The notes under the pieces were generated by a model. It worked only from the letters and a program-made list of their open reading frames with translations. It was not told the DNA's origin and ran no database searches. A program made the position numbers and the translations under genes. Below are positions 37,928 to 61,478 of a DNA stretch of 64,000 bases, one piece after another; within the stretch, counting starts at the first letter, position 1; the number at the start of each line of letters is the position of its first letter. The stretch is from Flectonema sp. DT1601 (lineage: Eukaryota), in contig OZ025790.1 in the NCBI GenBank assembly GCA_964019425.1, positions 558,001 through 622,000 of the forward strand, given 5' to 3'.

Positions 37928-38368
37928 GGCACATGCTTTTCTTACTGCAGTGACAGATATTTGTTTTGTTATGAAGTTCGTGTCTGGAATTCCACCTTCA
38001 ATTATATCTGCTGGTCATCAAGAAGAACTAACTTAGAGTTGGTTGATTTCGTATTCATTTTGAAGAAGCCGTCTGGCTACAGCAGAGATTAGTTTTTTTT
38101 TTTTTTAAGAAATTTGGAAGGATAGAATAACAATCAATTTGTTTGGTACGACTTTTACGACATAATCATCAAAAAAAAGAAAAAAAAAACAAGAAAGAAT
38201 AAATAAAAGAGGGCATCACCTCATCACTTTATATGTTTTGGATCAATAGCGCTCAGTATGTGTGAAGAAGATTCTTTCCCTTCCCTTTTATTAAATTTAA
38301 TTATTTCAGTACACTTAATGATAATAATGATTGCTGACTGCAAGTTTCGATAAAAGAGAAGGGACGTG

Positions 38369-41300: not shown

Positions 41301-44300
41301 CTGCAACTTTCGTAGCTTGCGACCCGCTAATGCCGTCTGCTCCCACTGCCAAGTCTAGAGTGGGTGTGCGGGTGTGCCTTCCGATAATGACGACACCTTC
41401 CAGATTCTGTTCTCAAAAATACATAGAGAATGAGGGAAGGCGTCGGTTTGGGCAGTTCGAGCTACCAGAACCTGTCTTTAAAGATGATGACATTATTGCT
41501 GTGTTTGACGGTGGTAGTGTGACTGTTGAGATTATGGAAGGCATTGATCCAGAAGATTGCCTCGGTCTCTGTGAAACGATGGGAAAAGACTACGAAATTA
41601 TACCTCTCAAACAAGAAGGTCTCAATACAGTTGTGTTACAAGGAGCTAATAAACACTTTGCTATTTATACTCCGCATCAAGTTGGCACTGCTGGATTTTC
41701 CATTCGGTTGGGCAGGGCTGCTGATCGCCGCAAAACTGTTGACACGTCTCTGAAGAAGGCTCACGCTTGTAGAGTTCGAAAGAAAGAACTCCTCCTCCTG
41801 CTTCGCAATATTTTCTTCTGCAACGAGAGTGATGACCCGACCACATTAAAAAAGGTCCTCCGAACTACGGTGACCGACTCTTTTGGAGCCTCATCTCAAG
41901 TAATTGTTGAACTAAGCATTCAACCAATTAATGATAAAACACAAGTTGTTCTTCCCACGACCAAATTGGCATACAGACAGGGATCGCGGAAAGACTATCG
42001 CGGATTTCAACTTTGTGCTGGTTGTGAACTTGTTGATCCGGATACGGCAGAATTGAGAGAGGGATTCATGTCAGTGGAGTTATTTGGTGGGGGAGGGAAG
42101 AATGACCGACTTGGCATCATGACTCCAGAACAACAACAGCAACTGAACGAATCGAATGACACTCAGAGTGCGATTGTTGAGTTGCTTCCGACCGATTCAA
42201 ATTCCAGTGAAGTTTTGATTGGCGGGCACTCTGTTGGATCTGTTGAATTCAAAGGTGGGCAGCGAGGAGCAGGTTCGCTCCACTTCTCAATCGCACTCGA
42301 ATCAAAATGGCCGGGTTGGGATAAACTTCCCAACACCCTAACCGCTCATTCAAGCAGTTGGTCACCTTCAAAAGATGGATCTCGAACACCTAAACATCGA
42401 ATAAGTAGCGTCTCTTCTCAAAGTGGTGGCCGCAGGTTCAGCCTCAGTGATAGCCCCAGAAGAAACCCATTAATGATTGTGACCAAAGAAGCGATTGGTG
42501 TTTGGGGACCACCAAAGCTCATTAAAATACTACCGAGGCAATCATCAGATCACATGGAAGCACCAGTCAATAAAAATGCGAGGAGAGCATCTCGCATGAG
42601 ATCTCAGTCAAGAGGCAAGAGGGGTTCCATATCGGCAGAAGCCCCGCCTGTCAAGTACGGATTACCATTGGAAGCTGCGTCTTGTCTTCTGAGGACAGTT
42701 ATCTATTGCAATACTTCTTCGGGAACTCTTTTAAAGAGTGGTCCGCGTACTTATTTACTTAAGGTGAATGCGGGCGACGACGTCGGTGATACGAAGGTCA
42801 AAATAACTGTTGATGCGTCTCCTCCATTGGTGAGCATTCCGGCGGCAATTCCTGCAGTTTTTAAGTATCTCGAAGGCAGTGATTTCCAGTCGGTTTGCAG
42901 CAAAGTTGTTATTGGATTGTCTCCCAAAATCGCCTTTAGAAGGGGATGGTTGTCTCTGTCATTTGTCGGAGGGTTTATTGCTGACGAAGATCAGCTTTCC
43001 TTTCAAGATCCTTCTGGTGAGTATTACATTACTTGGGCGAAAGACAAACCAGGGCAGGGACAGATCTTTGTGGATTCGCGACTTGAAAAGAGAGTTTTAA
43101 CATCTGGGAATCAAAATTCGTACTTACTTGGCAGCATAACAGAGACTGTGCAGGAGATCACAGTGCAATTTGAGAATAATTGTGTTACCACTGGCAAGCA
43201 TGTTTCTCATTTGTTAAAATGTCTATGCTATCGAAATGTCTCATTGACACCAACATCGTGGGTCACTCGAAGGATGGATTTACAAGTTTTATGGGGAAGT
43301 CCAGACCTCCCTCTGGAGAAGTCTGGAAAAGTAGAAATAGATTCACCAAACTACGATCATTGCTCTCTCTCTCTCGGTATCGAAGTAGAACCTTTTGACA
43401 ATCCGACGGAGGTTATTCTTCCAATAACGCAGTTGCATTTTACTGCTGGTGTTACAGGGTATGAGCCTGTGCCATTATTTATCGCCCCTGGTGCTGAAGC
43501 ACGGGATCCGGACACTCCAATATTCCTCCCGTCATCAGAAGTTAGTGTTGAGGTACTCGGAGGGTCACGAAATGATGTTTTGGATCTCTCACCTACTCCA
43601 CCTCACTCGGAAATTGACAACATGAACATCACAAATGGCGCTGTTGTGTTGTCTCAATCTCGTGTAGCAACTATTCGGAGAGTTGTACATCAGCCATTCA
43701 AACTTTGGCTCGATCTTCACAACTGTCCTGTCGAAGCTATTGCACCAATGCTTCGTAGGCTCGTTTACCGTCATTTGGGCGCCCCGAAGCGCATCTTCAA
43801 AAAGAACATACAAATCTCTGTAAAGACCGCTTCTGGGTCATATGAGCAATCCATCCCCACAAGAGTTAAGATGTTTGTAAATGTCATTCCTTCACCAATT
43901 GAATATATGTCGCAACCGGTGCTAGTGCAAAGAGGAAAGCTTCCATTGATTTTGCTTCCGTCCAGTACAAAAGTAAACAGCATTTCTGGAGTGGAATTTA
44001 AATTTGAAGTTATTCGATTAAGTGCGACCACTCGACGATCGAACCACATCACTGCAACTACTTCGGGAGAGGAGGCTGCAGTTCCGAGAGCCTTTTGGCT
44101 TCCTTTTGAGAGTTTGGAGTGGCTTCCTAGTCTGCGGGCACCAATCCAGTCGGACTGCTTAAGGTTAGGGCAACTTCCACCTGAGTACACCGTTAAAGTC
44201 GTAGCTACTGAGGGATCGGATAAAAATGGTCCACCTACTGCTGTCGAAATATTTGTTAAGGAGGGCAAACTTGGAACCGTAAGTACCCCTCGCAAAGATA

Positions 44301-44632
44301 TGTATCGGCTCAATGGCGATCGGTACACAGTTTCTCATGAGCTGACCTTGTCGCTGTCATCCCGCACGGTTTTGTCAGGTCGGACTGTTATTCCTGTCCT
44401 ACGAGCAATAGCCTACAGCTGTGACGGCTGTTTTGTTGACAAAGCCACACGCGATGCCCAAAAAAATACAAAACGAAGGGCCTCCGTCTCGTTCGATGAT
44501 GTGGATGTACCATCGCCTGAGGGATCTCCAGAAGTAATAGTCAGAATGACTACTAAAATCCCAGTTCCTAAACCACAACAATTTTTAGTTCTTGTAGACC
44601 ATAAAATTGTAAGACCCCACCCTGATACTTAA
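38369..44632 (+). CDS. About 2087-aa protein: N-terminal coiled coil plus about 8 cadherin-like/adhesin-type beta repeats
   Basis: Uninterrupted ORF with an E/R/Q-rich N-terminal region; repeated (G/E/N)D.L.(L/I) ... LR.(I/L).(Y/F).N motifs; INDK, FDNP and DPDT motifs. Confidence 0.85.
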   Translation: MEIPSLPVRLIGCSGSGGHAGHGRKPNGKERRELRDNNYYQPYSSSRPGSALCSIKSNGKIGSSQRPRSAASTHTSKQLMKTFKSVAAYEEMLTQRMQAELFKRQTRWSSEREVFNRIQSEEEYVRRAKVDKRLRIRREIVTLKHQIIFEREQHEDAEWHERSNIDSSCSFTLKEILLQCKGGARKISVKETMVAHQMQQSFERLEISVEELSSREVSSRRTLIRINLLELTQVGEAERAVTMALQREAEIARRFRAEREHQMNRLLNGETSERESATSGEIWEFIQIEKEHAAWQEAMRLEEERRRESFRQMLQEQDAVFTKERLSMVTLESQKRPDIRVQEAEERLDLSRAEVESKQQTLLSEEERRTRETAALREQQEAERQPIIRSETDDRMTLVDEVYGGLQSLWSKYQKGSLEIMKPITLRSRSFSPFLDGNDDVRIAAGAVFEMKRKFNPYISSKLVKLTIDVGIVDGYCEGDNLMILANSSIIRTTGYSLIRIVGGTFTAIRQIAFIKGRSSTAGPFPDPISIEEGCVPFTHTDGSLDSENNRWLRIELNFPKDRDPFKDTEWLLRQIRFKKPRKEWNPQVEDATKRTIVIRVVAALTPNAADISRGKRLVSCTVAHEISIEPLPPIFFLNTTSRHIRYELSKERVREGKRTAMKVMPTLLSYHPERSASHGILTVEITEPDVEGDQLLLRGHDLDIKHIQGRHRRTIIQKQGQELAEFIVGTLDPNSEQRCSFIKLKFAPEVSQWKVGEVIRSLRYSSQAQQPHRLRRRIKVQFTEAVPPWCSATAVCFINLQYPEDIGPCYIHLSQGISHCIVWRASASQSDTPYSKYVEPVITPIAPEGVIQNQHSLGCPEVGATLFKGGTLSFRIEQGVQSGDTLLLQPKAGVIATEVIESNSSQQTVSVRGRTIARMVSEVGGAHGSGTYEGATSVAWLRIEFTQQVAEIEICSIVQSICFTNNGPTHAGVRWITATFVACDPLMPSAPTAKSRVGVRVCLPIMTTPSRFCSQKYIENEGRRRFGQFELPEPVFKDDDIIAVFDGGSVTVEIMEGIDPEDCLGLCETMGKDYEIIPLKQEGLNTVVLQGANKHFAIYTPHQVGTAGFSIRLGRAADRRKTVDTSLKKAHACRVRKKELLLLLRNIFFCNESDDPTTLKKVLRTTVTDSFGASSQVIVELSIQPINDKTQVVLPTTKLAYRQGSRKDYRGFQLCAGCELVDPDTAELREGFMSVELFGGGGKNDRLGIMTPEQQQQLNESNDTQSAIVELLPTDSNSSEVLIGGHSVGSVEFKGGQRGAGSLHFSIALESKWPGWDKLPNTLTAHSSSWSPSKDGSRTPKHRISSVSSQSGGRRFSLSDSPRRNPLMIVTKEAIGVWGPPKLIKILPRQSSDHMEAPVNKNARRASRMRSQSRGKRGSISAEAPPVKYGLPLEAASCLLRTVIYCNTSSGTLLKSGPRTYLLKVNAGDDVGDTKVKITVDASPPLVSIPAAIPAVFKYLEGSDFQSVCSKVVIGLSPKIAFRRGWLSLSFVGGFIADEDQLSFQDPSGEYYITWAKDKPGQGQIFVDSRLEKRVLTSGNQNSYLLGSITETVQEITVQFENNCVTTGKHVSHLLKCLCYRNVSLTPTSWVTRRMDLQVLWGSPDLPLEKSGKVEIDSPNYDHCSLSLGIEVEPFDNPTEVILPITQLHFTAGVTGYEPVPLFIAPGAEARDPDTPIFLPSSEVSVEVLGGSRNDVLDLSPTPPHSEIDNMNITNGAVVLSQSRVATIRRVVHQPFKLWLDLHNCPVEAIAPMLRRLVYRHLGAPKRIFKKNIQISVKTASGSYEQSIPTRVKMFVNVIPSPIEYMSQPVLVQRGKLPLILLPSSTKVNSISGVEFKFEVIRLSATTRRSNHITATTSGEEAAVPRAFWLPFESLEWLPSLRAPIQSDCLRLGQLPPEYTVKVVATEGSDKNGPPTAVEIFVKEGKLGTVSTPRKDMYRLNGDRYTVSHELTLSLSSRTVLSGRTVIPVLRAIAYSCDGCFVDKATRDAQKNTKRRASVSFDDVDVPSPEGSPEVIVRMTTKIPVPKPQQFLVLVDHKIVRPHPDT

Positions 44633-44939
44633 TCTTGAATTGGCACCTTAATATTTTTAACCACATTTACATTATTTAGTAAAGGCTTTTCAGCCAAATC
44701 ATTTAGGAGATACAAGTTTGTTTTTTAATTATTGCCTTAACAGGATAATGACTACACAAGAACAAGACGCGCAAACACCTACGTCGGTGTCGTGAAAGGG
44801 GGACCCTCAAAAGTATTTGCTCTGCGAAGATCCAAGAAGTGCCAAGAACGACGAAGAACTGACGGAGGTTCAAGAACTCGATGCGAAGCAGAGGTGCAAG
44901 CTGAAATAAAACGGTCTCTTAAGAAAAACAGTTTAAAAT

Positions 44940-45021
44940 CGCAGTCGGCAGGATTTGAACCTGCGCGGGCAGAGCCCAATGGATTTCTAGTCCAACCCCG
45001 TAACCGCTTGGGTACGACTGC
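44940..45021 (-). tRNA. tRNA-Ser (anticodon AGA)
   Basis: Reverse complement GCAGTCG TACCCAAGCGGTTACGGGG TTGGA-CT-AGA-AA-TCCAT TGGGCTCTGCCCGC GCAGG-TTCAAAT-CCTGC CGACTGC G: acceptor stem, long variable arm and T-loop, followed by a TTTT terminator. Confidence 0.95.
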
Positions 45022-45054
45022 TCATAACCGCATAAACTTATTTTAAAAAGCATA

Positions 45055-45109
45055 AACGATTCTAAAGCTACTTTCTGTACTTTATTGACATACACAACAC
45101 AAAATGGCT
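45055..45109 (+). other. Genomic copy of a trans-spliced mRNA 5' end: spliced leader (45055-45087) + 5' UTR + ATG
   Basis: AACGATTCTAAAGCTACTTTCTGTACTTTATTG closely matches the euglenozoan/diplonemid SL exon (ending TTTCTGTACTTTATTG). It is followed by ACATACACAACACAAA-ATG rather than the GT donor of an SL RNA gene. Confidence 0.85.
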
Positions 45110-46961
45110 GACCCGGACTACACGGATTTGCCTATGCGGTTGGACGAAAAGTTCACAAGACGAATACCGTGCGGTATCTGGGTGTACATTACGACGAGAA
45201 GTTAACCTTTAAGTCGCAAATTCAAAAGATGATGACAGCTGCTTCCAAGGGTCTAGGCTTGTTGGTTAGACTCACTAGGATAGGCTGCAGAAAGAGGACA
45301 CTCATTAGTATACTAGTGACGGTGGTGTTAGCAAGGGTGCTTTATGGTGTTGAAAGCTTTGCTTGGATGTTACCAAAAGAGTGCTTCGAACAACTGGAAT
45401 TACTGGTAAACAGGGCAGTGAGGCTGGTAACTGGATGTCTGCGGAGCACCAAACTACAGAGACTATACAAAGAAGCCGACACGCCAAGACTGAAGGAACA
45501 CATCCAGTATAAGATGTGTAGAACTTACGAACGTTTCAAATTAAGTCCGTTCTTACCGACTCGCAAGCTGACGAGAACAGGGAGTTCAGAATTATTTCAA
45601 AAATCAAAATGGGGATGGAATGTCTGGATAGACTATGTCTCTGGTGTCCCTGGCCTTGACAATTACCGGAGCATTACCAACCTGGAAGTGAACCCAGAAC
45701 ACTACACTCTCCCTCCATGGAAAAGTACTAGTGCGATGAGATTCACATATTCAAGTAACAAGGAAGAGGCTGAACAGCGAGAAGCTGAACTACCAACTCA
45801 CGAGATGAAAGTCTACACTGACGGGTCGATAAGACACAAATCCGAGACTTACATGACAGACTCGGCTGCCGCTGTGGTCATAGTAAAAGAAAGCAAGATG
45901 CGTCTACTTGGATATAAAATACCAGTAGCGGGTTCCTCTTATAGGACCGAGCAGATTGCAGTAAAACTGGCGTTGGAAAATTTAGTTCAGGTGGCGGAGG
46001 ATGAACATGAATCTCTAACAACAACGACGCACCTGTTGACTGATTCGATGTCAGTCATGCAGGCATTGGAACAAGGGCCATATAAACAAAGGTCCCCAAT
46101 GAACAAAAAGATCTGGAAGTTGGCAATGAAACTGGAGAAGAAGGGAATCCAAGTCAACATGCAGTATGTACCGGCACACAGAAACGTGCGGTACAACGAA
46201 GTAGCGGACCAACTGGCGAAATTCGCTGCAGGCCTGAAGGAAGATCCACCTCACGAAGATGTTATTATTAAACAACTGCCCACTCAACTTGACATGGGAA
46301 CATTGATGACGTTTCACAAGCGGAGAAAACGGGAGAACTGGATCGGACCGGGAGAGGTAAGACACCCTCCGTACATCGAAGCTCTAACACGACCAGAGGA
46401 AGTACTGATGTCACGCTTTAGAGTGGGACATTGCAGAACTCTGATAATCAAAGGACTGAACGAGCTGTGCTTTTTCTGTAAACTTGGAAAGGCGACACAT
46501 CATGTATTATTTATATGCGAACATTGGTGTATAGAAACCTTGAGAGAAAAATACATCAGTCACATGATGAATGACAAGGGAGAGGAAGCATGCCAACTGG
46601 AGGACTGCTACTTACCTGCGAATCAACAGCAGATGACTGGTTTTGTCACAACCTTAGACAGACTGGCACAACTATTAGGACGGTAGTATTATTAAAACAT
46701 CGACATTTCGAATATCAACATTGAAGGCATCATTGCAACACATCTGAAGTCGTCCAAGTGGACAATTTATTCTGTAGTATTAGTTTTAAGTTATCAAAAC
46801 AAAGAAAGGAGATACGAAGCCTACGGGATTCCCACCCAACCCCCAAAACAAAGAAAGTAAGAAAGAAAGAAAGAAAAAGAACAACCGCGCCTAACAGCGC
46901 AATCAGCATCACAGACTCACGGGTCGTGATGCACTCAAAAAAAAAAAAAAAAAAAAAAAAA
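45110..46961 (+). mobile_element. 5'-truncated non-LTR retrotransposon, family A (RNase H-containing, Ingi/I-like), copy 1
   Basis: Intact ORF 45169-46686: RT C-terminus (RYLGVHYD), RNase H (VYTDGS, TEQIAV, LTDSMS, VPAH...NEVADQLA) and Cys/His motif (CFFC...HVLFIC). A 3' hairpin GCATCAC...GTGATGC precedes a 25-nt poly(A) at 46937-46961. Confidence 0.93.
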
Positions 46962-49900
46962 CTGGAAAGTATCTGATGGAATCGTTGTTATTGCTGAAAC
47001 CACCGTGAGGGCTTAACTGAAGCTGAATATAAAGGCGTATCTGATTTCGACACACAAAATTGTGATGTAAAAGCATCGTTTCAAAGAATTTTAACATCTA
47101 TAAATTACAGTGAAAAAATATTAGGGCTCTATCGTCCCGACATAAGTACACAAAAAATCAACGATAAACTTCCTGAATTTAAAACCTTCTCGATTCTTCT
47201 CAAGATAGAAGAACCAAATCTAAGACTATTTTTAAGTGCCTCCGGAAGAGGAGGGCTGTTTTTCAGACTAAGGAAAGACCACCCCATGAACCAGATCTTA
47301 AGTGTGATCTGGCTGGGGAGAATGGACCTAAAAACGTCCATATTAGCGCAGGAAAGTGTAAAGAGCACTTATGGAATAGCCCTGTGTAGGGGAAATTATG
47401 GAGTACGGGTAGAGAACGCCTGTAGGGAACAGGTACGAAAAAGTATTGGGGTGAAGTCCCTAGGATACTTCTCGGTAGAGGGTATTCCCAAGGGAGTCCC
47501 AGTGGACAAGATAATTGCGAACTTCGCAACAAAAGATATTGTGGTGAAGCCGATCAAAGTAATTGATGGCAAGTGGGTCCTCAAAATAGAGGATGACTTT
47601 CTGGGAGGAGAGAATAGAATGGTGTTGGAATGGCCAGACCATGGGGTGAAGCTTGCATGCTCCCGAACCGAAAGGCCGAAACCAAAGCTGATAACCCATA
47701 CAGCTGAAGGTGCACCACAGGCAAAGCCTGAATCAGACAAACAAGAAAAAGTGCAACAAAGTGGTATGGAGAGTAAACTTGACAAATTATTGTCGATGAA
47801 TGAGACGTATTTCAATAAAATAGAGAACATTGAAAAAAATGTCGAAATAAGCAACGTTCGTGTTGCGAAAATAGAAAATAATGTTGCAAATCAAAACAAA
47901 AACTTTGAGGCAATCCAAAAACGTTTCATGCAAATTGAAACAAAACTAGAAATACTAATGCCAGGATTAGGGCAGACAGAGATCAGTGGATCTGATGTGG
48001 ACATGTCAAACGGTGAATATGATTGGCATGCAGACCATACTCATAAAAACAACAACCCGTCCCCTCCAATAGACACCAACGTTGAGAAAAGCATAAATGT
48101 GATTAATGACAACTTGCTGGTTCAACGTGGTAATGTCCATCCCAACCCGGAACCAAATAATGAAAGAAACTATACAGACCTTAAAATAATATCAGTAAAC
48201 ACGAGGTCGATGACAACATCAATTGAACTTCTACGTCTCCTTGTTATTAACTATGAACCTGACGTGCTATTAATACAAGAGACATTTTTAACGAAAAATA
48301 AGAAAACACCCGTAATTGAAGATTATAACCCATATAGGAAAGATAGGACACTTCCAACACAAGTAGGTAAACCTATAAGAGGAGGAGGTCTACTAACCTA
48401 TGTTCATGATAAATATAAATTTAAAGAAATCGCGATCACACAAAGTGATTGTGACTTGAAATATCAGCTGTTGAAATACAATGTGATGAACCTCTAATTG
48501 CCTATAACATATATCGTCCACCCCTGCAATATAAAGATACTAGGTGCCCGAATCTTAGCCTAGATTGCATTGACTTGAAAAATAATATGAAAAATGATGT
48601 TGTCATAATGGGAGACTTTAATACACATAACCATATGTGGGAAGAGAATTCCATTGACGACATCAACGGAGAAATCGTATCTGAGTGGATTAGTGAAAAC
48701 AATCTTGTGTGTTGGAATGAGCCATCAATTCCAACAAGGTTGGAATCAAGGACCTCTCCGGACATAACCCTAACGAATACAAATATGAGAATAAAATCCT
48801 GGTCTACCCTTGGAACAGTTAACTCTGATCACTCACCAATGATGATTGTAATACAAAACTCGTGCAAAAATGCTGACTACCAAAAAGTGAAAAAATGTGG
48901 TTTCAACTGGGCCGAAGCTGATTGGACAAACTTCAGTGATGACCTTGAATTAGTCTCTGAGAGAATCCAAAATATTAAAATCAATGAAAAGAAAGCAAAA
49001 GTCTTTAAGAATGAAATATTAAAAGCAAAAAGTAAACACGTACCTAGAATCTATGTGCGTAGGCGAAAAGCGAAGAAGTGGTGGAACTCCGAACTAATGA
49101 AACAGCTTCGTCAATTTGAAGCTAAACAAAAAGAAATTACAGATGACAGCGACCTGAATGATGAAAATATAGCACTACTAAAGAAATTGAATGAAGAGAT
49201 ATGTGAAAAAGTAAAAGAATGTAGGGAACAACAAATTGAAAAAAGAGTGAAAGAATGTGTTACGGAAGATAGATCTCCGAACAAAGATGGCATTTTAAAG
49301 TACATGGATGATGTGAGAAAACTTGACGGGCGGTGTGAAAGGGTAGAAATACCATTTATACACGACCCAAATATGGAAAAAATAATCGACGATAAGGAAA
49401 AAGCTGATTTCTTTACTGATTTCTTCTCAACTATAGTAGGGAAAGATATAAATGAAAAGTACAGACATAACTTCAACATGAATATTAAAGATGACATAGT
49501 TCCGTTCACTTTCTCTGAGGTGATGACACAATTGGGAAAACTACATAGTACCAAATCTTCACCTGACGGAATGAATGCGATCCTGTTGCAAAATCTAAAA
49601 CCCAAAATGCAAAAAACATTAGTTGATATCCTAAATAACTCTTGGTTGAACATGGTAGTACCTAATGACTGGAAACAGGCTTATTGGGTACCGATTGCAA
49701 AGCCCGGAAAAGACCCCCACAATCCAGCATCTCAGAATGATAGCGCTCACCCCTGCGATCGCTAAACTTATCGAAAAATTAATAAAGAACAGGCTTGTAT
49801 ATCACTTAGAAAAACATAACAATGGTGTTAAAAACCTGAGTCATAATCAAGCTGCTTATCGTAAAACGAGATCGTGTAGGGAACAGGTTCTGTACCTAAT

Positions 49901-52727
49901 CGATATACTCAAAGAGAATAGAATAAGAGGGAAAACTTCGGCGGTTGTCTTTATGGATATAAAGAAAGCTTTTGATTCTGTCAACCACCACAAGTTACAA
50001 GAAAGAATGAGAAAGATGTCGATACCTGAAAACTATATTAGGTGGGTCGAAAGCTTTCTGCACAAAAGGACAGCTGCGACTATAATTAACAGCAGGGTAA
50101 GCAAGTACATTAAGCTCACAAATGGAGTCCCGCAGGGAACTGTCCTTGCGAGTATATTATTTGTACTCTACATTGATGAAATAACCGAAATTATAGAGAA
50201 CAAAGCAAACATGTCACTCTATGCAGATGATATTGCATTTGTAGTATCTGACGAAAATTGTGCTGGTAGGCTGTCAAAAAGAGTTCAAACTGTATTTACG
50301 AAAGCGGAAGAACACTTAAACAACATTAATCTTGAGTTGGCGAGAGATAAAACAAAAATAATGATTGTTGACTCGAGTACCTCACGGAAAAAGAAATGCC
50401 AATATAAAATTAAATTTAAAGATAAGACGTGCCTAACAGAAACTGATTCTGAGAGGTTCTTAGGTGTCCAGATTGATAATGATCTATCGTTTTCTGATCA
50501 TGTATCTCAAATATGTAAAAGTGTGAACAAGAAACTTCGCTTCCTAAAAATGCTGGCTGATAAAAGATGGGGTTGTACTAAAAATATAATCAGACTAGTC
50601 TACTTAATATACATCATACCTGTATTTACCTATGCTATCGAGAGTTTGTACAGCACCATTGTACGAAACAGAAAACTAATGCGAAAACTGAATACTCTTC
50701 ATATGAAAGCAGCTCAAATCATAACTGGTGCTGACTACGGAACAAAATTTGAGAAGGTCTTGGAAGAATCCTGCGTAGCGGATCTGAACAGCTACTATCT
50801 TGTTGAAACAGCAAGATGGGCTGCAAAGATCGAACGACTGCGTGCCTCTCCTTGTACCAAAAGATTGATGGAAAAACGAAAAATAAGATATAAACATATG
50901 CAAACATTGTGTTTTGCAATCAAAACGTATAGTGATATTGGTCTCACAGACCTACCAGTAGAACTTTATCCTCCAACTTACTTTCCTCTTTGGAAGGATT
51001 TTGATAAAATAGAAATGAACGAAAATATTGGTGCGAGAAAATGCGAAAACACGAATAGAAATCAAGATATCTGTAAAGAACTTATCAGAAAATTAGAAGA
51101 AAAATATGAAAACAACATACTTGCGACAATATATACTGACGGCTCTGTAAGTGAAGGAGTTGGAGGTGCATCATTTGTAATAAATTTTGAAGAGAAATTC
51201 CTGGAAGGTAAATTCCCGGCAGGAAAAATATGCTCCTCTTTTAGATCGGAGTTATTTGCAATATACCACGCTCTCAATACTTTACTGAAAGTAATAAAGA
51301 AAAAACCAAATAGGGAGTTGGAAGACAAGGCAATTCTAGTTCTCTCAGACTCACAGAGTGCCTTATCTGAACTAAAAAGAGGTCATTGCTACCAACGGGC
51401 TGAGCTAGGTCTTAAATGCTGGATTATCCTGGGAATACTGTGTGAACAGGGTTTGAAAGTTAATATATCTCATATTTTCTCACATTGTGGAATCGAAGGG
51501 AATGAAAGGGCAGATGCTCTTGCTGCTGAAGCAGTACATATGGAACAAGACAAAGTCAAAGTCGATTACAAAACTGTAACGACGAAAATGAAATTCTTAC
51601 ATACAAAAGTTAAAATAGGAAAGAAAGAATCATTTCCTCCGAAATTCAATAGGGAAATGGAAATATTGATCTCTCAAATAAGGATGGGAAAGGCATGCTT
51701 TACCACAAAGCAAACTGGTAATAGATATAGAAATGGATTGTGTCAATGCTGTGAAGTCGAAGACACAGTACAACACTTTGTATGTGAATGCCCTGCATTC
51801 TATAAGGAAAGAAAAACAAACTTCGAATCTCTTATACTATCGGAACAAGAGTTAGAAGGACACGTGAATGAATTCGATGGTATGAAAATACTGTTGAAAT
51901 ATATATGTGAAGTGGGAAAAGGGCTTATCCAAAGGGTGAGGCTCATAAGAAAATAAAGAAACGATGCTTTTGCCCCACTCTTTTGTGAAGGTAGATGCCT
52001 TGTGGTGCCGAAGGAAAGCAGACAGGGGAACAGATGATGAAGAGGATTCTGATGTATGAAGAAGGTGATTCTGATGTCATTTAAAAGATGAAGATTATGT
52101 AGTTACGAAAATGATGAGGATACTGCAGTAAGTTAAATGAACAGAAGAGGTCATCCTACTCCTTGAGAACAAGAAGGGTTCATTGAGAAGCCTGTCATTT
52201 TGCTGTTTAATTATGCTGATAATAACAATTATGCTGATAACATTTATTACGTAACTCTTGCTTAACATTAGACAAATCTAACTAAGTCTTTTGTTCATCT
52301 TGCTCTTCTTAACTTCCATTATGCGAAAAACTTCTTAAGCAAGAGGGAAAGCTGATTGCTGGAAGGAGGGCTGACAGTTTTAAGATGTGGAGAACACTTA
52401 TTTAGATGAAGACGTAAAGTAAATTAGATGTACTCACATGAGGATTATAAACATGTCAACAACTCAAAGAAAAAGGGTTAATCGTGTAACCCGTCAAACC
52501 ATGCTGTTGTAACTATTATGCTGATTAATTTTATTTTTACGTAACTCTTGCTGCACATTAGACTAAACTAGCTCAGTCTTCTGTTTCTCTATTGTATTCC
52601 TTTCTATTTATGAACGAACCTTTTGGGGTCAACTTACCCCGCTCATAAACAGGATATCAAGTGAACAGAGAATTAACCTTCTCTGTATCACAACAAATCC
52701 AGTATCAAAAAAAAAAAAAAAAAAAAA
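46962..52727 (+). mobile_element. Near full-length non-LTR retrotransposon, family B (ORF1-APE-RT-RNase H-Cys/His), copy 2, with at least two frameshifts
   Basis: APE (IISVNTRS, LIQET, MGDFNTH, SDHSP); RT (DIKKAFDSV, GVPQG, YADD, FLGV); RNase H (YTDGS, SDSQS, SHCGIEGNERADALA); CQCC...H...EC. A 3' hairpin (ACAGAGAA/TTCTCTGT) precedes a 21-nt poly(A) at 52707-52727. Confidence 0.95.
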
Positions 52728-55700
52728 TAACCGGAAGAACCTTTATTTATTAAAGGGACCACACAAAATGCCTTCACGCGGCGGTCTCGGAAGGCCCCAG
52801 CTGTTGCATTATTAAGAAACTCCGGAATAGGAAATGCTTATTTCCGGATCAAACCAGTGGCGGGACAGACACCCACTCAGTACACTACAGTGTGGCTGGA
52901 CCGCAAGACAACGAACGAAGAGGCAGTTGGCATACTTAAACCCAACATGACCTCTGCCATGGACTCACCATCATACATGGCAAGATTGGATTGAGGGTGG
53001 TTTACACGAAGGATGTTGACAAGGTGGGAAAGGGTGCTGGCAAATATGCATCCGCAGTGTTTGGCGAAGGGCTCCACCGTCTCAGTGGAGCACCTTACAG
53101 CTGGGGCAACAGACTCCGGAACATCCTATTGGAGATAGGACTGAAGTCGAAGTTTATAAGGATGGATAGAGGTGACTTTATCATCGCACTGGACAAGAAA
53201 CCAGAATCAAGGTTTGTACAGTGTGGTGATATTGTCATCCTCATTGAAAAGTTAGAAACAGAAGTGAAGGCGAAGGAAACAGCGAAACCCGTTGTAGTTA
53301 AGTACCGTGAGGCTAGAACATCGTACGCAGCAGCGGTCAAGAGGTCACTCCCGACAACGAAGAAACCAACGGCCGAAGTACAGGTTGTAGAAAACAACGT
53401 CAACAGCCTGAGAGAGAAAACGAACGAGACTATCGAACGTCTCCAGAAAGAAGTGAAGGACATGCAAGCTCGACTTGATGAAGGCATGGCACAGATAACC
53501 GGGATTGTAGAAACCCTGGTGCAAACTACGAAAAAGAACGAAGCAGCCAACAACAACATGGCGACAGCCATCACTTCGCTAATAGAAGCTGTCAAGAGGA
53601 TTGAGAACAATGGTATGAACAAGATTACTACAAGTGCGACCAACAGGAACAACACTGGCCAATCATGATTGTGATTTGGTCAAATAACATTCGCTCAGTT
53701 CTGAAACCAGAAAATTACTTTCGATTGAACTGGGCACTGAAAGAAGAAAAGCCTGAAGTAGTACTACTGCAGGAAACGTGGTTATCAAAAGAAAAACACT
53801 TCGCTATTGAAGGATATTCAATCCACAGGAGAGACAGCACCATCAAGTCAGGTCATCGAGGACTCGTCACTCTGGTCAGAAATGATTTAAATAAGTTAAT
53901 ATTAAAACACCCCGACATCTCACATGACCAAACTGAGATATTAACAGTAGTACTTCAATCTAATCCGCCATTGACAATTCACAATGTCTACCACTCGCCT
54001 GAAATCAAGGCAACAACATGGAAGTTCAAAACAGAGCCCGGCACATTGATTGCGGGTGACATTAATGGACACCATTCAACTTGGTCAATGGTAATACAAA
54101 CACCACTGGTAACAGCTTCTACAATTGGTCACTAGAAGCAACAATTCGAGTACTAAATAAACCTCAACAACAGAATTAAGAATGTGCAGAAACTTGCTAA
54201 TAGGATCAACAACGAGATTCTGAGAGCAGCGAGTAGGGCCATCCCAGGCTACAACAAAGAAGTCAAGTAGTACCTTCGCTGTGAGGGGTTCAGAATTGGA
54301 AGATTTAATGGCAGAGACTGACCCTGATAAGGCAGACTCAGAAGCAATTGAAAGAGGTATCAACATGATCAAACAGAAGACCATTGAGTGCGACATGACT
54401 GGAATGGACTACCGATGGGCCTTTAGAAAAGTTAAACAACTGGAAGGTAGAATGATGGACCATTCAATTACTAAGATTGTCGACGGTGAGAAGGAATTAA
54501 CTGACCTGCGGGAGGTGGCAGATGTCTTCACCAAAACGTACGCAGACCAATTCAAATTCGAAGACGGTGAACCAACCTTACAAGGAATACCTGATGACAA
54601 CTCGGTGGAATTTGGAATGCCTGAACTGGAACGACAAATTTCAAAAACAAAGGAGAAGAAGGCACCTGACCACATCTGGACCTGACCACATCTGGAACTC
54701 GATGTTAAAACAACTTCCATACCAGCCTCACTGCCCTGCTTACCAGTAATTCCAGTTGTTCGAAGCACTCTTTTGGTAGCATCCAAGCAAAGCTCTCAAC
54801 ACCATAAATCACCCTTGCTAACACCAGTATACTGATGAGTGTCCTCCTTCTGCAGCCTATCCTGGTGAGTCTAACCAACAAGCCTAGACCCTTGGAAGCA
54901 GCTGTCATCATCTTTTGTATTTGCGACTTAAAGGTTAACTTCTCGTCATAATGTACACCCAGGTACCGCACGGTATTCGTCTTGTGAACTTTTCGTCCAA
55001 CCGCATAGGCAAATCCGTGTAATCCAGGTCCCACTCTTTCCAGCATCTTATCTATTTCTGCCTTGTTGTGGGCTTTCTTCAGTTGTGAGTGGCACTTGGC
55101 CTCACGTGAAGCCAGGGTTCTTATTGATTTTGATGTGTGAGTCAAGTGCCCACCTTTCAAATATTTTGACGCGTTGTTAACCAAAAAAAAAAAAAAAGAC
55201 AGTCGGTTCACCAAATCAAAGTTTATGAAGATAGAGAATAACTGGGGTCCCAGCACGCTTCCTTGTGGTACTCCTACTCGAATGTTCCGGAATGCTCCCT
55301 TCACTCCATTCACCCTTGTTGAAATCTTCCTGCTAGTCAAGTAGTTTTGAACCCACGTAGATATTTCGTATTTTGGACATCTTATTCAGAAGAGTTACCG
55401 GAAGGGTTGAACTGCATCGAAGGCTTTTGTAGGTCGAAGGTGATTAATATCGCTTCTTCTCCCATTGCCTTGGCTCTTTTGAGTCTGTCTGTAACTATAC
55501 TGAGATTTTAAATGGAATCCCGTCCTCGTTTGTAGGCTGCTTGCCTCGGATTCATTCTGTCTTTCAACAGATGGTGCATCCGTTCTACGACCATTCTTTC
55601 AAAGAGCTTCGAGATGGTCGAGGTCGAAGGTCGAGGTTAGTGCTATCGGTCTGTACGATAAGACTTGTTTCTTGTCTTTATCAGGTTTCAGTATGGGTAT

Positions 55701-57953
55701 TACCATTCCACTTTTCCAGCACCTGGGTACTGCTGTTGCCATGGGGGGTTGAATAGTCTTAGTAGTTGCTCGAGGCTGGTAACTGGATGTCTGCGGAGCA
55801 CCAAACTACAGGGACCTTACAAAGAAGCCGGCACGCTAAGGCTGAAGGAACACATCCAGTATAATGTGTAGAACTTATGAACGTTTTAAATTGAGTCCGT
55901 CCCTACCGACTCGCAAGCTGACGGGAACAGGGGGTTCAGAATTATTTCAAAAATCGAAATGGGGATGGAATGTCTGGATAGACTATGTCTCTGGCCTTGA
56001 CAATTACCGGGGCATTACCAACCTGGAAGTGAACCCAGAACACTACACTGTCCCTCCATGGGAAAGTACTAATGCGATGAAATTCACATATTCAAGCAAC
56101 AAGGAAGAGGCTGAACAGCGAGAAACTGAACTACCAGCTCACGAGACTTACATGACAGACTCGGCTGCCGCTGTGGTCATGGTTAACGGAAGCAAGATGC
56201 GTCTACTTGGGTATAAAATACCAGTAGCCTCTTATAGGGCCGAGCAGATTGCAGTAAAACTGGCGTTGGGAAATTTAGTTCAGGTGGCAGGGGATGAACA
56301 TGAATCCCTAACAGCAACGACGCACCTGTTGACTGATTCGATGTCAGTCATGCAGGCATTGGGGCAAGGGCCATATAAACAAAGGTCCCCAAAGTTGGCA
56401 ATGAAACTGGGGAAGAAGGGAATCCAAGTCCCGGCACACAGAAACGTGCGGTACAACGAAGTAGCGGACCAACTGGCGAAATTCGCTGCAGGCCTGAAGG
56501 AAGATCCACCTCACGAAGATGTTATTATTAAACAACTGCCCACTCAACTTGACATGGGAACATTGATGACGTTCCACAAGCAGGGAAAACGGGAGAACTG
56601 GATCGGATATCAACATTGAAGGTCAAACCCACGAGGGTGACCCAATGAGCGGGGGCGACCGTAAACGCCATTTTTCCGGGAAGGGAGCTGGGGGAAAGAG
56701 GGGATATTGAATGGAGGGAAAACCACGCGATGTGTGGGGGCCTGTTCCGGAAGGCAAAAAGCGGATCGGAAGACCGCCGAAAAAATCACTTGCCGAACCT
56801 AGGGAAACCTGGAACTCGAGAATCAGTGCACTCTGCGTCATACCGAAAAGTACACCTGGGCAATTACATTTCATCCTAAATAGCTACCTCGTTACCGCCA
56901 TGCAGGCTACCGTCTTACGAAACGATAGGAAACCTTGCTACCACGTAGGTACGCTTGCAAGCTGACTTCGCATCGTATTTCTTTCAATTCCCGATTACTG
57001 AAAGAATTAGGCCATTGTTCTCCTTTCGAGTAGGCAAGAAGATCTACCGGATGACACGTCCCCTGAAGAAGCCCTTGCTGACCTTTATTTGTATTAACAG
57101 CCCGGGTTAATTGTTTTCCCCATAACTTGTGAATTTCAATAGGTAGGTTATTTCTCTGTCACAAGCCTGTTTGCATCAAGCGGCGCTCTCTAGACTAACG
57201 TCACTTCTTTGGAAGCAAGGCAAACCTTCATAGAGCTCTCTTGGAGAAGTTTGGGCCAACAAACCTGTAAACCTGCAAAGTCGGATCGAGTCAATGAAGT
57301 GGTACGAACCTTTGGGGAATGGGCATTACATTCATGTGAAGCCGAACGGAACAAGCAGCCCTGTGTACTCGTACTAGCATACTTTTCAATTTGTTGTGGC
57401 CACAGCAGAACTTGTGAAAGACAACAGTAAAAAAGAAGGAAGACTATGCTGTCACTCACTTTTACGTGGTGCCGCCACATAGAATAAAGACAAAGCTGCC
57501 GAACAAACCAACAACAATAAAAACACTAAAGATGGATGCTCAGCGCTTCCCCCCAACTAAAGAAAGTTCACAATCGAGGGGGGATAGATAAGATGCTGGA
57601 AACAGTGAGTGGGGCCAGGACACCGCACTTGCAACTGGACGTAAAGTACATAAGATGAAAGTTGCAAGGTACTGGGGCACGTCTCAAAATTCCATTTAGG
57701 TAATTTGCCACCGAAACTGAGCACCTGGTGCCGGTGTCCCGTCGAATCGAAACGGCCCGGTACAACCTCTACGCAGAAGTAATCTGCACCACAGTGTAGA
57801 TTCTTCTAAGTGATCTCAGGCTTTAAGTCATCAAAACAAAGATACGAAGCCTAGGGTCCCCACCCCCAAAACAAAGAAAGTAAGAAAGAAAGAAAAAGAA
57901 CAACCGCCTAACAGCGCAATCAGCTCACAGGTCGTGGTGCACAAAAAAAAAAA
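52728..57953 (+). mobile_element. Decayed full-length family A non-LTR retrotransposon, copy 3 (internal inversion and insertion)
   Basis: ORF1 remnant (52991-53668) overlaps the APE start via ATGA. APE motifs (WSNNIRS, LLQETW, AGDINGH); the RT core is inverted (GVPQGSVLGP on the - strand); 55772-56606 is homologous to copy 1; the 3' UTR and 11-nt poly(A) (57831-57953) match copy 1. Confidence 0.9.
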
Positions 57954-58641
57954 GCTCTCGCTATTGCAACTGACACCAGGGCGCAGATGAGGGTTCTTTA
58001 GGCAATCCCGGCCAAGGCATCCATATCCTTGAAGGCAGTGAGGGCCTACTCCCAGAGAAGGCTGCACAGCTTGTGCGGTTTTAGATGGGGATTTTGAAAA
58101 TAACTTACCGGAAAACGGAAGCACTGCCGGTCTCGAAGGCCTGTGGATGCTGGTTGGCTGCACTGACTGCCATCATGCTGATGGTGGGCAGTTTAGATTC
58201 CAGTTGCTTAACTGGATGATCAAGACCTGCACATACCCAATGTTGTATGGGCTTGATCACCAGCCCTGGGGGTAATTCCCATTACTGGGAGGTACCTTGT
58301 GCATTCAAAGGGCAGTGTTGCTGAAGTGGGCAAGGGACTTAGGCATGCAGGTTTGCCAGGATGTAACTCGTCCATTTTTGTTTCAAGCAGGCGCAGTGCA
58401 GATCTTGCCATGCGAACGGGCATCGAGGAGTAATTGAAAGCAAAACAGAAAGTAGTTCCAAGGCTGAACAGGCAACCCTGAAGTTGATTAGGGTTTGGAA
58501 AAGCAACCTCTGCCTTGGGCCCAGATGTGTAATTACGAGGGGCTTTCAGTGATTCTAAATTTGATCTGGATGAGCTGCGAGGTGGTTGCGGCACAGCTGA
58601 ACCCCCTCGATACTAGAAGAACAGCAGATGGTTAGAAAATT

Positions 58642-59784
58642 GGGGGGAATTCCCCGTTTGCGGGGAATTCCCCGTTGCCTACATAAAAAAAAGTTTTTTC
58701 TCCGTTGCCTGTCACCTTAACTTTTTTCCCCCGTCGCCACCCAAAAAGTTTTTTCGCTGCAACTCTTTTTTTTTTTCGCTTTTGTCTGCTAAACCTCCTT
58801 CCAGTGGGGCAGCAGGCAAGGGTGACACTTGTCAGGAGTGCACTCTCGCTAGGGAAGACATGTCCCAGAGTTGGTGTCGGAACACCGGCACGTTTATGGT
58901 TGGGAGGTGTATGTTTCCAGGCATTTGGTGGTAGGTAGGTAGGTGTTGAGTAGTTATTATCTGGAAACGTAGAGTAAAAAAACAAACAAACTATCAAGGG
59001 GACCTAGAACAGCAAGAAAAAAATGAGAATCCCTAAAAACCACCAAAATTTATTTTCAGCCACAAAGTTTCCATGAACACCCGCTCACCTTAAGCGCAAA
59101 CGGATGTTGAGAACGTTTGTACGGTGTTCGTCTGGCTTGACGAGATGAGCAAAGACAAGTACTCACGGAAAGGTTGGGTTGTTCGTCAGGTCTTGATAGT
59201 GTTCTCAGCCTCTGGAAGTTTTACTACGAGTGCATGCAAAGAACGGTATGTGTGCAGGGCTGGGTCACCTTACAGAGAACTGTTGTCCTCTTACACGTCA
59301 TTCCAACCGAATTTCAAAGTCAAGACACCTGCGAGTTACAGACAGCCTGGTCGCAAGCGACACTCCTGTTTCTGACCGGGTTATCAGGGTATCTAACTCA
59401 TGCAAGCATGAGAGCTTTTTTAAGGCTACCTTAAATTATCAAGAGCGCAGTACTGCCTGAAGGGTTCCCGCGTGTCAAGATGCATTTGCATGTACTGAGC
59501 AGAAGTTCCAAAAGGAAGATTACTTTTATCATTTCCCAAGTCATCACATCCTTAACCGTTTGTGTTATTAGCTTTCAATCAATCCATCAGATGAGTGTAT
59601 GGTATCTAACTAACCAGGTCGACAGGTGCACAAAAAAAAAAAAAAGAAAAAAAAAAGGGAAAAAGGTCAGGTGACACACAACAGCGAAAAAAAAAAAGAA
59701 AAAAAAACACAACGGAGAAAAATTCTTTTAGGTGGACTACAACGGAGAAAAATAAAGTTTTGGGGTAGCAACGGAAAATTTTCC
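58642..59784. mobile_element. Non-autonomous Mutator-like (MULE) element with a 9-bp TSD
   Basis: TAGAAAATT is duplicated at 58633-58641 and 59785-59793. The G-starting imperfect TIRs (GGGGAATTCCCCGTTGCCTAC vs reverse complement GGAAAATTTTCCGTTGCTAC) carry repeated TTTTTCTCCGTTG subterminal motifs. Confidence 0.82.
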
Positions 59785-61478
59785 TAGAAAATTAGACTCA
59801 TTTGCACCTTCAATTTACCAGCCCGCAAAGGGGATTGAACCGCATAACAATGCAGATGAACTGGTGAAAAGATGTTAAGACCAAGCCGGTGCCAACGACT
59901 ATGGACTTCTTCGCACATAAGTCAAGGATGAGGGAAGCCAACAGAAAACTGCCTGGCAAGATTATGGGGGGTTCTGCAAGGGCAAAACCACTGATCAAAC
60001 GGGTGATGCCCAGGCAATATCTCGAAGCTACGGTCGTTCTTTCAGTTTCTTTAGTTCAATTTCCTCATGAGTGTCATAGCTTCAATTTTGCTCTCTTTTG
60101 CTTTAATCTCTTGCACGTCTCGTCCAAGACCCCCATCTTTCTCGGAAGGAAACAAACAAGAAATAAAGAAGGAATAAGCGTTGTCATACGCAGCACGAAA
60201 CTGTTTGTTCTATTTGTCCCCTTTGTATTTTACTAAACCTCAGCAGTGTGTAGTCTCAAATCATGTTGTACGAATCTATATTACAATTAACTTTAAGTGA
60301 CTATTTTCACAAATAACTATTACCTATCACAGCGACAGAGGGAAGGGGGCCTGACTAAATTTTCTTTTCCTTCCTCTTGCTATTTTTCTTTTTTACTTTT
60401 TTTTTTTAAATTTTTATCACAAAAAGGAATAACAACATTCATTTATTCAACTCAACTGAGACATGCCGTTATGAAAACAATATCTTACTGTACGCTTAAA
60501 TATCACATTGTGAAGAAGCAACACACAACTAAGCAACTCTTTAACATCACCAGAGGCGCTGAAGTTCTAAATGTAACTACACTTAAACAGATCGAAAATC
60601 GTAAGCTGCTTCAGAATTCTTCCAAATTCCAAAAAAAAAAAAAAAAAATAATAATAATAATCGCAGAGGCGTCCAAATGTTACATTTATTCATTCAAAAT
60701 GATATTAAAAAGCGTCCCTGTCTCAGTGTTGTTCTTCACTCAATATTATCAAAAAAATAAAACCAACAAACCGAAGTTAAAACGCATGCAAGTTTCGGGC
60801 TCGTGCATCATTTTCTGCCTCAATGACTTTCTTCCGTGTTCTAAATGTGCAACACAACGACGAGGCGAAGACGAGTTGATGTGCACCATAAGAACCCAAA
60901 AGAAAATCACATCCGACAGAATTAAAATAATGGGCTCACCAAGAAACTTGCATACATTTTGCTTCAATAATTGGCTAATATTTATTTATTTTATTGTTTT
61001 TTTTTTCTCTTTTCTTTTTTTTCGTCAGTTTGGGTACAAAGTCTCGCACAGTTCAGTTTGCAAAAAAATACCTAAAAAGTCCTTAAGTAATAAGATCACT
61101 GCTGTTGAATTGAAAATAAAAAAAATAAATTAAATGTTGAAACTTGCAACTCGCTACCGAGATTTTTTTTGTTTTGCGGAAAAAAAAAAAAAAAGTTCCC
61201 CAATTGATATTACTTGTTTAAGGGTGAAGAAGGCCTAAGTGTTATCGACGGGTAATTTGATACTTTAGTTTTACTTGAAAAGTTGGGAGTATTGAGCTGG
61301 TGGTTACTTGAAGAAACCAATCCAATTATATTTAATATTTACAAAAGATAAACAAACGTCAGGTAGCCGTGTAATGTATTGCAATTGACGGCTGTTTTGT
61401 ATTTTAGTTACAAAGACCACAGTGTGCAGTTAGTTGATTTCTCTTGTACAACAAAAACATACGCAACCACTCGCTCTC

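Follow-up and report, generated by a model that had tools for sequence, protein, structure and literature searches.

A stack of three LINE copies borders the 5' end of the only tRNA gene in the analysed stretch of 64 kb (the window), and the best explanation of this arrangement is repeated insertion positioned by the tRNA gene, a reading that we hold for this one locus with roughly even confidence. The gene, tRNA-Ser(AGA), lies on the minus strand at 44940–45021 (ARAGORN; Rfam RF00005, 54.7 bits), with its 5' end at 45021 and a T-run terminator beyond 44940; ARAGORN and Rfam detected no second tRNA gene in the window. All LINE matches adjoin it (45110–57681) and none were found beyond this interval in the 64-kb window. 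As claimed by an earlier reading of the sequence alone, three poly(A)-tailed copies from two families follow each other in the order A, B, A nearly without spacers (0 bp between copies 1 and 2; 27 bp, 52728–52754, between copies 2 and 3), with runs A25, A21 and A11 ending at 46961, 52727 and 57953, respectively. The claim of a uniform orientation also holds: all three copies are on the plus strand, with their 5' ends towards the 5' end of the minus-strand tRNA gene. The block starts head-to-head 33 bp upstream of the tRNA gene (flank 45022–45054), i.e. within less than ~100 bp. This distance, likewise reported before, applies only when a spliced-leader piece starting at 45055 is counted, whereas the LINE homology itself begins at 45110, at a distance of 88 bp. 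To the left lies the last gene of a plus-strand array, a frame of 2092 codons (38354–44632, +), and to the right an LRR gene (61558–63144, −), which together make the tRNA/LINE block a convergent strand-switch region. Diplonemids are marine protists, and the diplonemid origin proposed for this DNA is supported by homologues of both families in Flectonema neradi and by spliced leaders that occur elsewhere as 39-nt exons followed by GT.

Copy 1 is a chimera, consisting of a spliced leader (SL) without its first four bases, a 22-nt leader and the 3' part of a family A element. Positions 45055–45087 (+) correspond to bases 5–39 of the SL exon with a 2-nt deletion, as revealed by comparison with the SL gene in two sequencing runs, where AACC precedes and GT follows the matching sequence and AG is inserted behind 45071 relative to the locus. 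At the locus the 3' end of the exon is complete and the next bases are not the GT of the SL RNA gene; judged from its sequence, an SL exon lacking this GT is the mark of a trans-spliced RNA. Since copy 1 starts with the SL minus four bases, it is likely a reverse transcript of such an RNA. The A/C-rich leader (45088–45109, +) carries an ATG at 45104 that is out of frame with the LINE, and resembles host 5' UTR and start contexts as well as, in part, the start of copy 3. The family A part (45110–46961, +) comprises thumb, RNase H, Cys/His finger, 3' UTR and A25, as assigned by Pfam RNase_H and by comparison with the intact family A protein P0186, to whose residues 781–1305 it is 99.2% identical (3 substitutions and one gap in 525 columns). 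Thus, of the 'intact ORF and A25' ascribed to this copy only the tail stands: its 524-codon stop-free frame covers just these residues and lacks the endonuclease and the RT core. In the likely template, the 3' part of A was joined to a short mRNA start; such a fusion may have arisen through a template switch, or by transcription of an A element inserted immediately downstream of a start codon.

The spliced-leader cap points to LINE machinery copying a trans-spliced RNA right to its 5' end. SL-tagged retrogenes of dinoflagellates, which are DNA copies of trans-spliced RNAs, also retain the 5' SL, but those are host genes, whereas the body here is the 3' part of a LINE (accessible text of PMC5585692 and PMC12014239). 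CRE, SLACS and CZAR are likewise euglenozoan LINEs adjoining spliced-leader sequence; they carry a restriction-like endonuclease and are inserted in SL RNA genes between bases 11 and 12 (accessible text of PMC5814959 and PMC12278014). An SL-gene-targeted element of this type was rejected on account of the APE endonuclease and of the whole SL exon end being joined to non-GT sequence. Scanning metagenome contigs for the SL motif yielded 135 matches at 122 loci, of which 90 were spliced at the ends of contigs, 36 preceded a GT and 9 were internal without GT; the full 39-mer was present in 15 matches. A second SL-LINE-tRNA case was not among them, a tRNA being found at 1 of the 122 loci and LINE homology at none. 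Contigs of two runs end at 45109–45112, possibly hinting at a multi-copy SL-capped form; we discounted this sign, shared break points being common there.

Copy 2 (46962–52727, +) belongs to family B and contains, in this order, an N-terminal region of ~400 aa, a 2A-like motif (~48114–48155, degenerate to NPEP), an APE endonuclease, RT, RNase H and a Cys/His finger. Two to three frameshifts had been attributed to it; comparison with intact copies, from which it differs by ~1%, located two, near 48455 and 49732, and the A21 tail was confirmed. Intact LINE ORFs are present on sister contigs. As proteins, families A and B are 24% identical. Copy 3 (52755–57953, +) is a near full-length, decayed family A element ending in A11, and its identity of 86–93% to copy 1 in matching parts places both in one family. 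The damage described for it earlier was fully recovered: 118 gap letters in the 8 records listed, an inversion (~54720–55771), whose joint 54719/55775 was found in contigs of two of the three runs, and in the 3' end an insertion of ~1.2 kb that lacks a tail. The 3' end also carries a deletion. At its 5' end (52755–52790, +) we detected the core of an HDV-like ribozyme with P1, P3, L3 and the GG of P1.1, which scored 19.7 bits with Rfam CPEB3, i.e. below the gathering score of 35. The core is incomplete, since the 3' strand of P2 and the catalytic loop were not found. It is the sole core of this kind on the plus strand of the window, with none at the 5' end of B, and probably marks the 5' end of family A. 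Six of the seven matches in the Rfam scan (43500–61500) were below threshold.

A search for exact repeats revealed the 7-bp direct repeat ATAACCG, whose left copy (45024–45030, +) lies 3–9 bp from the tRNA gene and whose right copy (52727–52733, +) is located directly behind the tail of copy 2, making it a candidate target-site duplication of copy 2. Among the four tail junctions tested it was the only exact repeat with at least 6 informative bases. A repeat of this kind arose in 415 of 200000 flank shuffles and at 355 of ~140000 random starts, corresponding to ~0.002 per junction, or, as the repeat was found post hoc, to a chance of ~0.01 over the four junctions; as long a match was seen at 1 of 107 other A-runs. 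If the repeat is read as the duplication of B, the ribozyme-like 5' end of copy 3 was therefore originally 30 bp from the tRNA gene, and under that reading the two family A distances agree, 30 bp for copy 3 and 33 bp for copy 1. Accordingly, the 27-bp spacer would in the best reading represent the original tRNA flank, and 45031–45054 the cut-off 5' tip of copy 2. For copies 1 and 3, the same search did not reveal any convincing duplication. Taking all 27 bp of the spacer as one long duplicated target was rejected, because about one quarter of the positions differ, as compared to ~1% between the flanking copies and intact ones.

The relative age of the copies was assessed by private amino-acid differences, which amounted to 7/374 in copy 1, 12/1247 in copy 2 and 21/409 in copy 3. 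Copy 3 is clearly the oldest. The proposal that decay rises with distance from the tRNA gene was thereby upheld for copy 3 versus the other two (p=2e-6 against copy 2), but not for copies 1 and 2, which are inseparable by divergence (p=0.17); B may therefore be the youngest, sitting in the tail of copy 1. Copy 1 is nearest to an intact copy and copy 2 is ~1% off, which agrees with the insertion order deduced below.

According to our preferred explanation, anchoring by the tRNA gene, each newcomer likely cuts in on the tRNA side and moves the older copy outwards. Family A (copy 3) would have inserted first, with a distance of 30 bp between its 5' end and the tRNA gene. Family B would have followed 3–9 bp from the tRNA gene, leaving the 7-bp duplication, and copy 1 would be the last arrival, brought by family A machinery to a point at 33 bp that lies 24 bp within the tip of B; the missing duplication of copy 1 is likely explained by a target-site deletion. 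By analogy with TRE5 of Dictyostelium, the tether would likely be the Pol III initiation complex (TFIIIB/TFIIIC), and the convergent strand-switch position probably allows the stack to persist. At this locus, the positional preference put forward by the sequence-only reading is supported by the geometry, and tRNA anchoring by the candidate duplication, whereas divergence does not tell copy 1 and copy 2 apart in age. In an RT tree built without named ingi, L1Tc, TRE, NLTR, I and R1 elements, none of which were among the matches listed, families A and B formed one group, whose weak support (SH-aLRT 82) would still fit a preference inherited by both. Against tRNA anchoring it has to be considered that A and B would require different distances (~30 versus <10 bp), that the family A 5' end at 52755 depends on a sub-threshold, incomplete ribozyme core, that the 5' tip assigned to B is provisional, and that the locus is of the strand-switch type, and retroposons of trypanosomatids accumulate in such regions in any case (accessible text of PMC5814959 and PMC4035085).

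The serious rival, which we rate as rather unlikely, is a Pol III-independent hot spot at a tolerant strand-switch region, i.e. either a sequence motif preferred by the endonucleases, as by those of L1Tc and ingi, that by coincidence lies upstream of this tRNA gene and is renewed with each insertion, or insertion of B into the poly(A) of copy 1 with an all-A duplication. L1Tc indeed occurs in tandem clusters with a conserved preceding pattern, about half of the copies lacking a target-site duplication (accessible text of PMC5814959), and the anatomy of both families is ingi-like (2A-like motif in B and its relatives, ribozyme core in A). Moreover, the 27-bp spacer resembles the 33-bp flank with a local score of 26, reached by 6 of 5000 random 33-mers, and this likeness could reflect an upstream motif of family A. 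However, its significance does not exceed that of the 7-bp anchor taken by itself, and the remainder may therefore be AT-rich chance; a motif also leaves unexplained why the repeat is placed 3–9 bp from the tRNA start. As for tail targeting, B is sandwiched between A25 and A21 without a single base separating it from the tail of copy 1, but none of the other A-runs bears a LINE, although the window contains 108 runs of at least 9 (both strands).

Passive accumulation, in which the tRNA gene merely marks a Pol II termination zone as the sole tolerant site where LINEs gather at random, appears improbable. The setting would suit it: plus-strand genes reach 44632 and the gene on the minus strand begins at 63144, convergence regions and tRNA genes are sites of Pol II termination in kinetoplastids (accessible text of PMC6597758), gene clusters of Diplonema papillatum are parted by TE-rich regions (accessible text of PMC10161547), and the block shows nesting and rearrangement in its distal part. 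However, random insertion should break older copies and use both strands, whereas we observed abutting 5' ends on one strand. Both later insertions fall at most 35 bp from an existing 5' end in the same orientation, for which the rough random chance is 3e-6, assuming 7.2 and 13 kb of tolerated target and random insertion into the block; from this geometry a random pile-up is unlikely. Even less probable is an origin of the junctions in metagenome mis-joining, or in recombination or deletions involving different LINE clusters, for although copies 1 and 3 lack target duplications, copy 3 carries an inversion, a deletion and a tail-less insertion, and no independent read or contig spans the junctions among the 24 of 68 records listed, both inner junctions coincide precisely with poly(A) ends, and the first falls exactly on SL base 5, as expected from retrotransposition. 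Base quality is adequate, since the nearby 2092-codon frame and the LINE ORFs on sister contigs are intact.

Among known systems, the locus resembles TRE5 (TRE5-A/B/C) of Dictyostelium, likewise an APE-type poly(A) LINE located some tens of bases upstream, with its 5' end towards that of the tRNA gene. TRE5 elements insert 44–54 bp upstream of tRNA genes in opposite orientation (accessible text of PMC5911963), one tRNA gene can be used by several elements, as proposed here (PMC5006619; accessible text of PMC5911963), and 5'-truncated TRE5-A copies with target-site deletions are on record (accessible text of PMC3159450). In contrast to TRE5, the distances are 30–33 bp for A and, as deduced, 3–9 bp for B, the host belongs to Euglenozoa, and both families carry RNase H, which sets them apart from the TRE5 family proper with its APE-RT-zinc finger ORF2; furthermore, TRE5 targeting is established genome-wide and experimentally, as opposed to one locus here. 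The domain order APE-RT-RNase H is shared with the dictyostelid elements NLTR-A and NLTR-B, which insert 2–6 and 39–64 bp upstream of tRNA genes, respectively, i.e. two related families with two distances (PMC5006619). These are from Amoebozoa, and the likeness is one of domains and positions. In that work, tRNA-upstream targeting is recognised by several copies at similar distance from different tRNA genes (PMC5006619).

The families also share APE, RT, RNase H and poly(A) tail with the euglenozoan ingi/L1Tc clade (with RIME, NARTc and SIDER), which has a 5' HDV-like ribozyme (Pr77-type) and a 2A-like DxExNPGP sequence before APE and occurs in tandem clusters and strand-switch regions; the accessible text of PMC5814959, PMC4035085 and PMC12278014 reports no tRNA anchoring for it. 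An NPGP-type 2A-like motif is found in a Flectonema relative of B and in family C, is degenerate in B and was not seen in A. In contrast to ingi/L1Tc, for which an endonuclease sequence preference and unspliced transcripts are described in accessible text, the elements here have a long N-terminal region before APE, and one copy bears the SL. The ESM Atlas returned generic APE-RT-RNase H clusters only.

Table 1 in the accessible text of PMC5911963 lists tRNA-upstream LINE targeting solely for social amoebae. The sequence-only reading had proposed targeting by RNase H LINEs in Euglenozoa as not known to be described. We found no euglenozoan precedent in the titles and abstracts searched, subscription papers being mostly beyond reach, nor a relevant passage in the text of the D. 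papillatum supplement, whose repeat sections possibly lie outside the searched text. However, dictyostelid RNase H LINEs already target tRNA upstream regions (PMC5006619), and therefore RNase H is not the new part; targeting here would add a lineage to a mechanism that is already known. It would represent a further independent origin in another eukaryotic supergroup, Euglenozoa, in a lineage with polycistronic transcription and tRNA genes doubling as Pol II terminators, and would show how ingi-type elements, guided largely by sequence, are able to change over to targeting guided by proteins. If instead the rival applies, the locus is one more tandem cluster of the ordinary kind, located at a strand switch. 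We tentatively propose, with less than even confidence, that ingi-like RNase H LINEs of diplonemids independently evolved Pol III-anchored docking with offsets of ~30 bp (A) and <10 bp (B), building age-ordered stacks at termination sites, and that SL-capped truncated derivatives are also mobilised, their 5' end being set by trans-splicing instead of a ribozyme. Such targeting could be put to the test in D. papillatum, which is genetically tractable, and LINEs with site selectivity attract interest as tools for safe-harbour insertion.

Searches for family A copies with flanks confirmed none of 54 pattern matches in metagenome contigs, of 5 in viral contigs and of 42 in prokaryote genomes; for family B, none of 2 in viral contigs was confirmed. 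In a small share of three sequencing runs, mostly family A was covered and the flanking host genes not at all, so that these runs yielded no empty allele. Few contigs were common to several families, which is uninformative on association. Finally, the earlier description of a three-copy stack is correct for the three copies, but the stack also comprises further pieces. The insertion in copy 3 contains a fragment of a further A-related family (57284–57681, +), detected by tblastn with 67% identity to P0187 and 45% to P0186. A possible fourth element, repeated DNA with an A-rich tail (59305–59656, +), was matched over 59305–59509 with 11 differences in a run without coverage of host genes, and its 3' end bears a weak likeness to that of family A.

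The tRNA-Ser(AGA) gene (44940–45021, minus strand; Rfam 54.7 bits) is the sole tRNA gene in the window. Upstream of it we found three LINE copies, all on the plus strand, at 45110–46961, 46962–52727 and 52755–57953, with tails of A25 (46961), A21 (52727) and A11 (57953), the tail lengths that the sequence-only reading had given. By Pfam, copy 2 carries endonuclease, RT and RNase H domains, copy 1 an RNase H domain, and copy 3 remnants of endonuclease and RT. The proposed order of two distinct families, A, B, A, was upheld: copies 1 and 3 share family A, and the intact protein of B (P0015, 1250 aa) shares 24% identity with that of A (P0186, 1305 aa). The near absence of spacers was likewise confirmed, as copy 2 starts at the base following the tail of copy 1 and ends 27 bp before the point where copy 3 is inferred to begin. 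The stack is real and unusually orderly. In addition to the three copies, the same strand holds a fragment of another A-related family (57284–57681). It also holds repeated DNA that ends in an A-rich stretch (59305–59656), for which no coding similarity was found.

No LINE matches were detected in the window outside this block when 13 LINE proteins served as queries. Plus-strand host genes extend as far as 44632, whereas the minus strand carries an LRR gene (61558–63144); therefore, the block sits in a convergent strand-switch region, on the basis of this one minus-strand gene and a switch from T-runs to A-runs. Of note, a 2092-codon open frame without Pfam match (38354–44632) directly precedes the tRNA gene, and a protein kinase segment occurs as a tandem duplicate (18231–19154 and 19835–20761, 89% identical).

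Under random insertion into the block, two end-abutting same-strand events have a rough chance of 3e-6. Therefore, some positional rule operates at the locus, and at this single locus the rule may be set by a DNA motif, by a poly(A) tail or by the complex on the tRNA gene. An exact-repeat search at the junctions revealed no convincing target duplication around copy 1 or copy 3, and one informative repeat at the tail junctions, ATAACCG (45024–45030 and 52727–52733). A match this long arose by chance in 415 of 200000 shuffles, at 355 of ~140000 random starts and at 1 of 107 other A-runs; across four junctions the chance is ~0.01. If ATAACCG is the target-site duplication of B, a consistent history would follow. 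Without B and copy 1, the ribozyme G of copy 3 would sit 30 bp from the tRNA gene. B would have cut in at 3–9 bp, its own 5' end starting with 45031–45054, and copy 1 would have come later, at 33 bp. The order would thus be copy 3, B, copy 1, with no insertion farther than 33 bp from the tRNA gene. Target-site deletions are reported to accompany truncated TRE5-A copies (PMC3159450), and by analogy such a deletion could account for copy 1. No further copies with flanks were found among metagenome contigs, viral contigs and prokaryote genomes.

Copy 1 had been taken to carry an intact ORF, which did not hold: it is a spliced-leader (SL) chimera, in which family A homology begins at 45110 and spans only P0186 residues 781–1305. 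The 55 bases ahead of 45110 consist of the SL and a 22-nt leader. Contigs of two of the three sequencing runs match 45055–45087, each with two extra bases; in one of them AACC precedes the SL match and GT follows, which identifies an SL RNA gene. The same 39-nt SL exon was present in 15 matches of a motif scan. Reverse transcriptases are known to halt at the cap's first four bases, which are methylated. Since the SL in the window lacks exactly bases 1–4 and no GT stands behind it, it probably derives from a trans-spliced RNA. An ATG at 45104 is in a different frame from the LINE. The sequence around it is similar to host starts and, in part, to the beginning of copy 3, both candidate sources of the 22 bases. 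None of the 122 SL-bearing loci from the metagenome motif scan showed LINE homology.

Decay had been proposed to rise with distance from the tRNA gene. We counted private differences, i.e. amino-acid differences from the majority of other copies (excluding, for copy 2, two proteins identical to the window and probably its own), and obtained 7/374 for copy 1, 12/1247 for copy 2 and 21/409 for copy 3. By this measure copy 3 is the oldest (p=2e-6 against copy 2, p=0.019 against copy 1), but copies 1 and 2 are not ordered (p=0.17), so that the proposed gradient stands for copy 3 only. The unbroken 1.6-kb frame of copy 1 versus two frameshifts in 5 kb of copy 2 is weak evidence of youth. Copy 1 differs from P0186 by 3 substitutions and one gap over 525 columns, and copy 2 by ~1% from P0135. 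At the DNA level, among the 24 of 68 run records listed, copy 1 showed 50 differences in 3856 positions with 9 gap letters, and copy 3 showed 72 in 3552 with 118 gap letters; the three runs have low depth and leave host genes uncovered. Among these records, copy 3 (52755–57953) decays mostly by short deletions (118 gap letters vs 72 substitutions), and a strong deletion bias may hold this genome compact.

Homologues in Flectonema neradi show 54% for family A and 56–60% for family B, which makes a diplonemid host likely, and close copies of both families lie on many long contigs. The P0186 cluster holds 91 member sequences, with sister families of 31 and 39, and family B holds 10, with a sister family of 22 and a third of 18; because fragments count as members, copy numbers do not follow from these figures. 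In an RT tree of 263 columns (44 of 78 aligned rows kept, 34 unnamed ones excluded; no ingi, L1Tc, TRE or NLTR reference), A formed one group (SH-aLRT 100) and B together with family C another (98); all three joined, though the support was weak (82) and the branch leading to A long. A FastTree tree of APE plus RT gave the same grouping. Judged by anatomy alone, A and B appear ingi-like: a 2A-like motif, degenerate in B, precedes the APE in B and relatives, and an HDV-like core, incomplete and below the Rfam threshold, marks the start of copy 3.

L1Tc/ingi elements form tandem clusters, insert according to the sequence preference of their endonuclease and accumulate at strand switches. They have the domain order in common with the families described here, and their ribozyme and 2A motif have candidate counterparts in the incomplete core of copy 3 and the 2A-like motif of B and relatives (PMC5814959, PMC4035085, PMC12278014). 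Transcription by kinetoplastid Pol II ends where gene arrays converge and at tRNA genes (PMC6597758). In D. papillatum, TE-rich regions separate the gene clusters; 211 tRNA genes are present, and the SL is 39 nt long (PMC10161547). TRE5 inserts 44–54 bp upstream of tRNA genes in the opposite orientation, its ORF1 protein binding TFIIIB (PMC5911963). NLTR-A and NLTR-B, which possess RNase H, insert 2–6 bp and 39–64 bp upstream (PMC5006619); B and A are inferred here to differ likewise, one inserting near the tRNA gene and the other farther away. Whether the stack works like TRE5 or NLTR, a class defined by a genome-wide criterion and assessed here at one locus, we regard as about evenly balanced. 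On structure, the elements themselves were excluded from being TRE5 or SLACS. A literature search, mostly at title and abstract level and perhaps not extending to the repeat sections of the D. papillatum supplement, found no euglenozoan LINE described as targeting tRNA genes.

Loci around SL motif matches on other contigs were also recorded. In L066 (1–1113), 8 clustered tRNA genes are immediately followed by an SL RNA gene, and another adjoins U4, U5 and SRP RNA genes in L013 (269–1445). In L075, a Pistol ribozyme (1366–1462; 49.6 bits, above the Rfam gathering score) immediately precedes a 5'-truncated SL and a 357-codon ORF. The complete 39-nt diplonemid-type SL exon, with no GT behind, occurs as DNA in AT-rich giant-virus-like contigs (L049:622–660, L053:4493–4531, L094 and L102), and one 237,777-bp viral contig carries the exon at four places (L123–L126, match at 3001–3026 of each locus). 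These viral exons stand ~16–18 bp behind AAAA(A/T)TGA, which we take to resemble a giant-virus early promoter, and a few tens of bases ahead of an ORF. This arrangement suggests that these giant viruses hard-wire the host spliced leader at gene starts.
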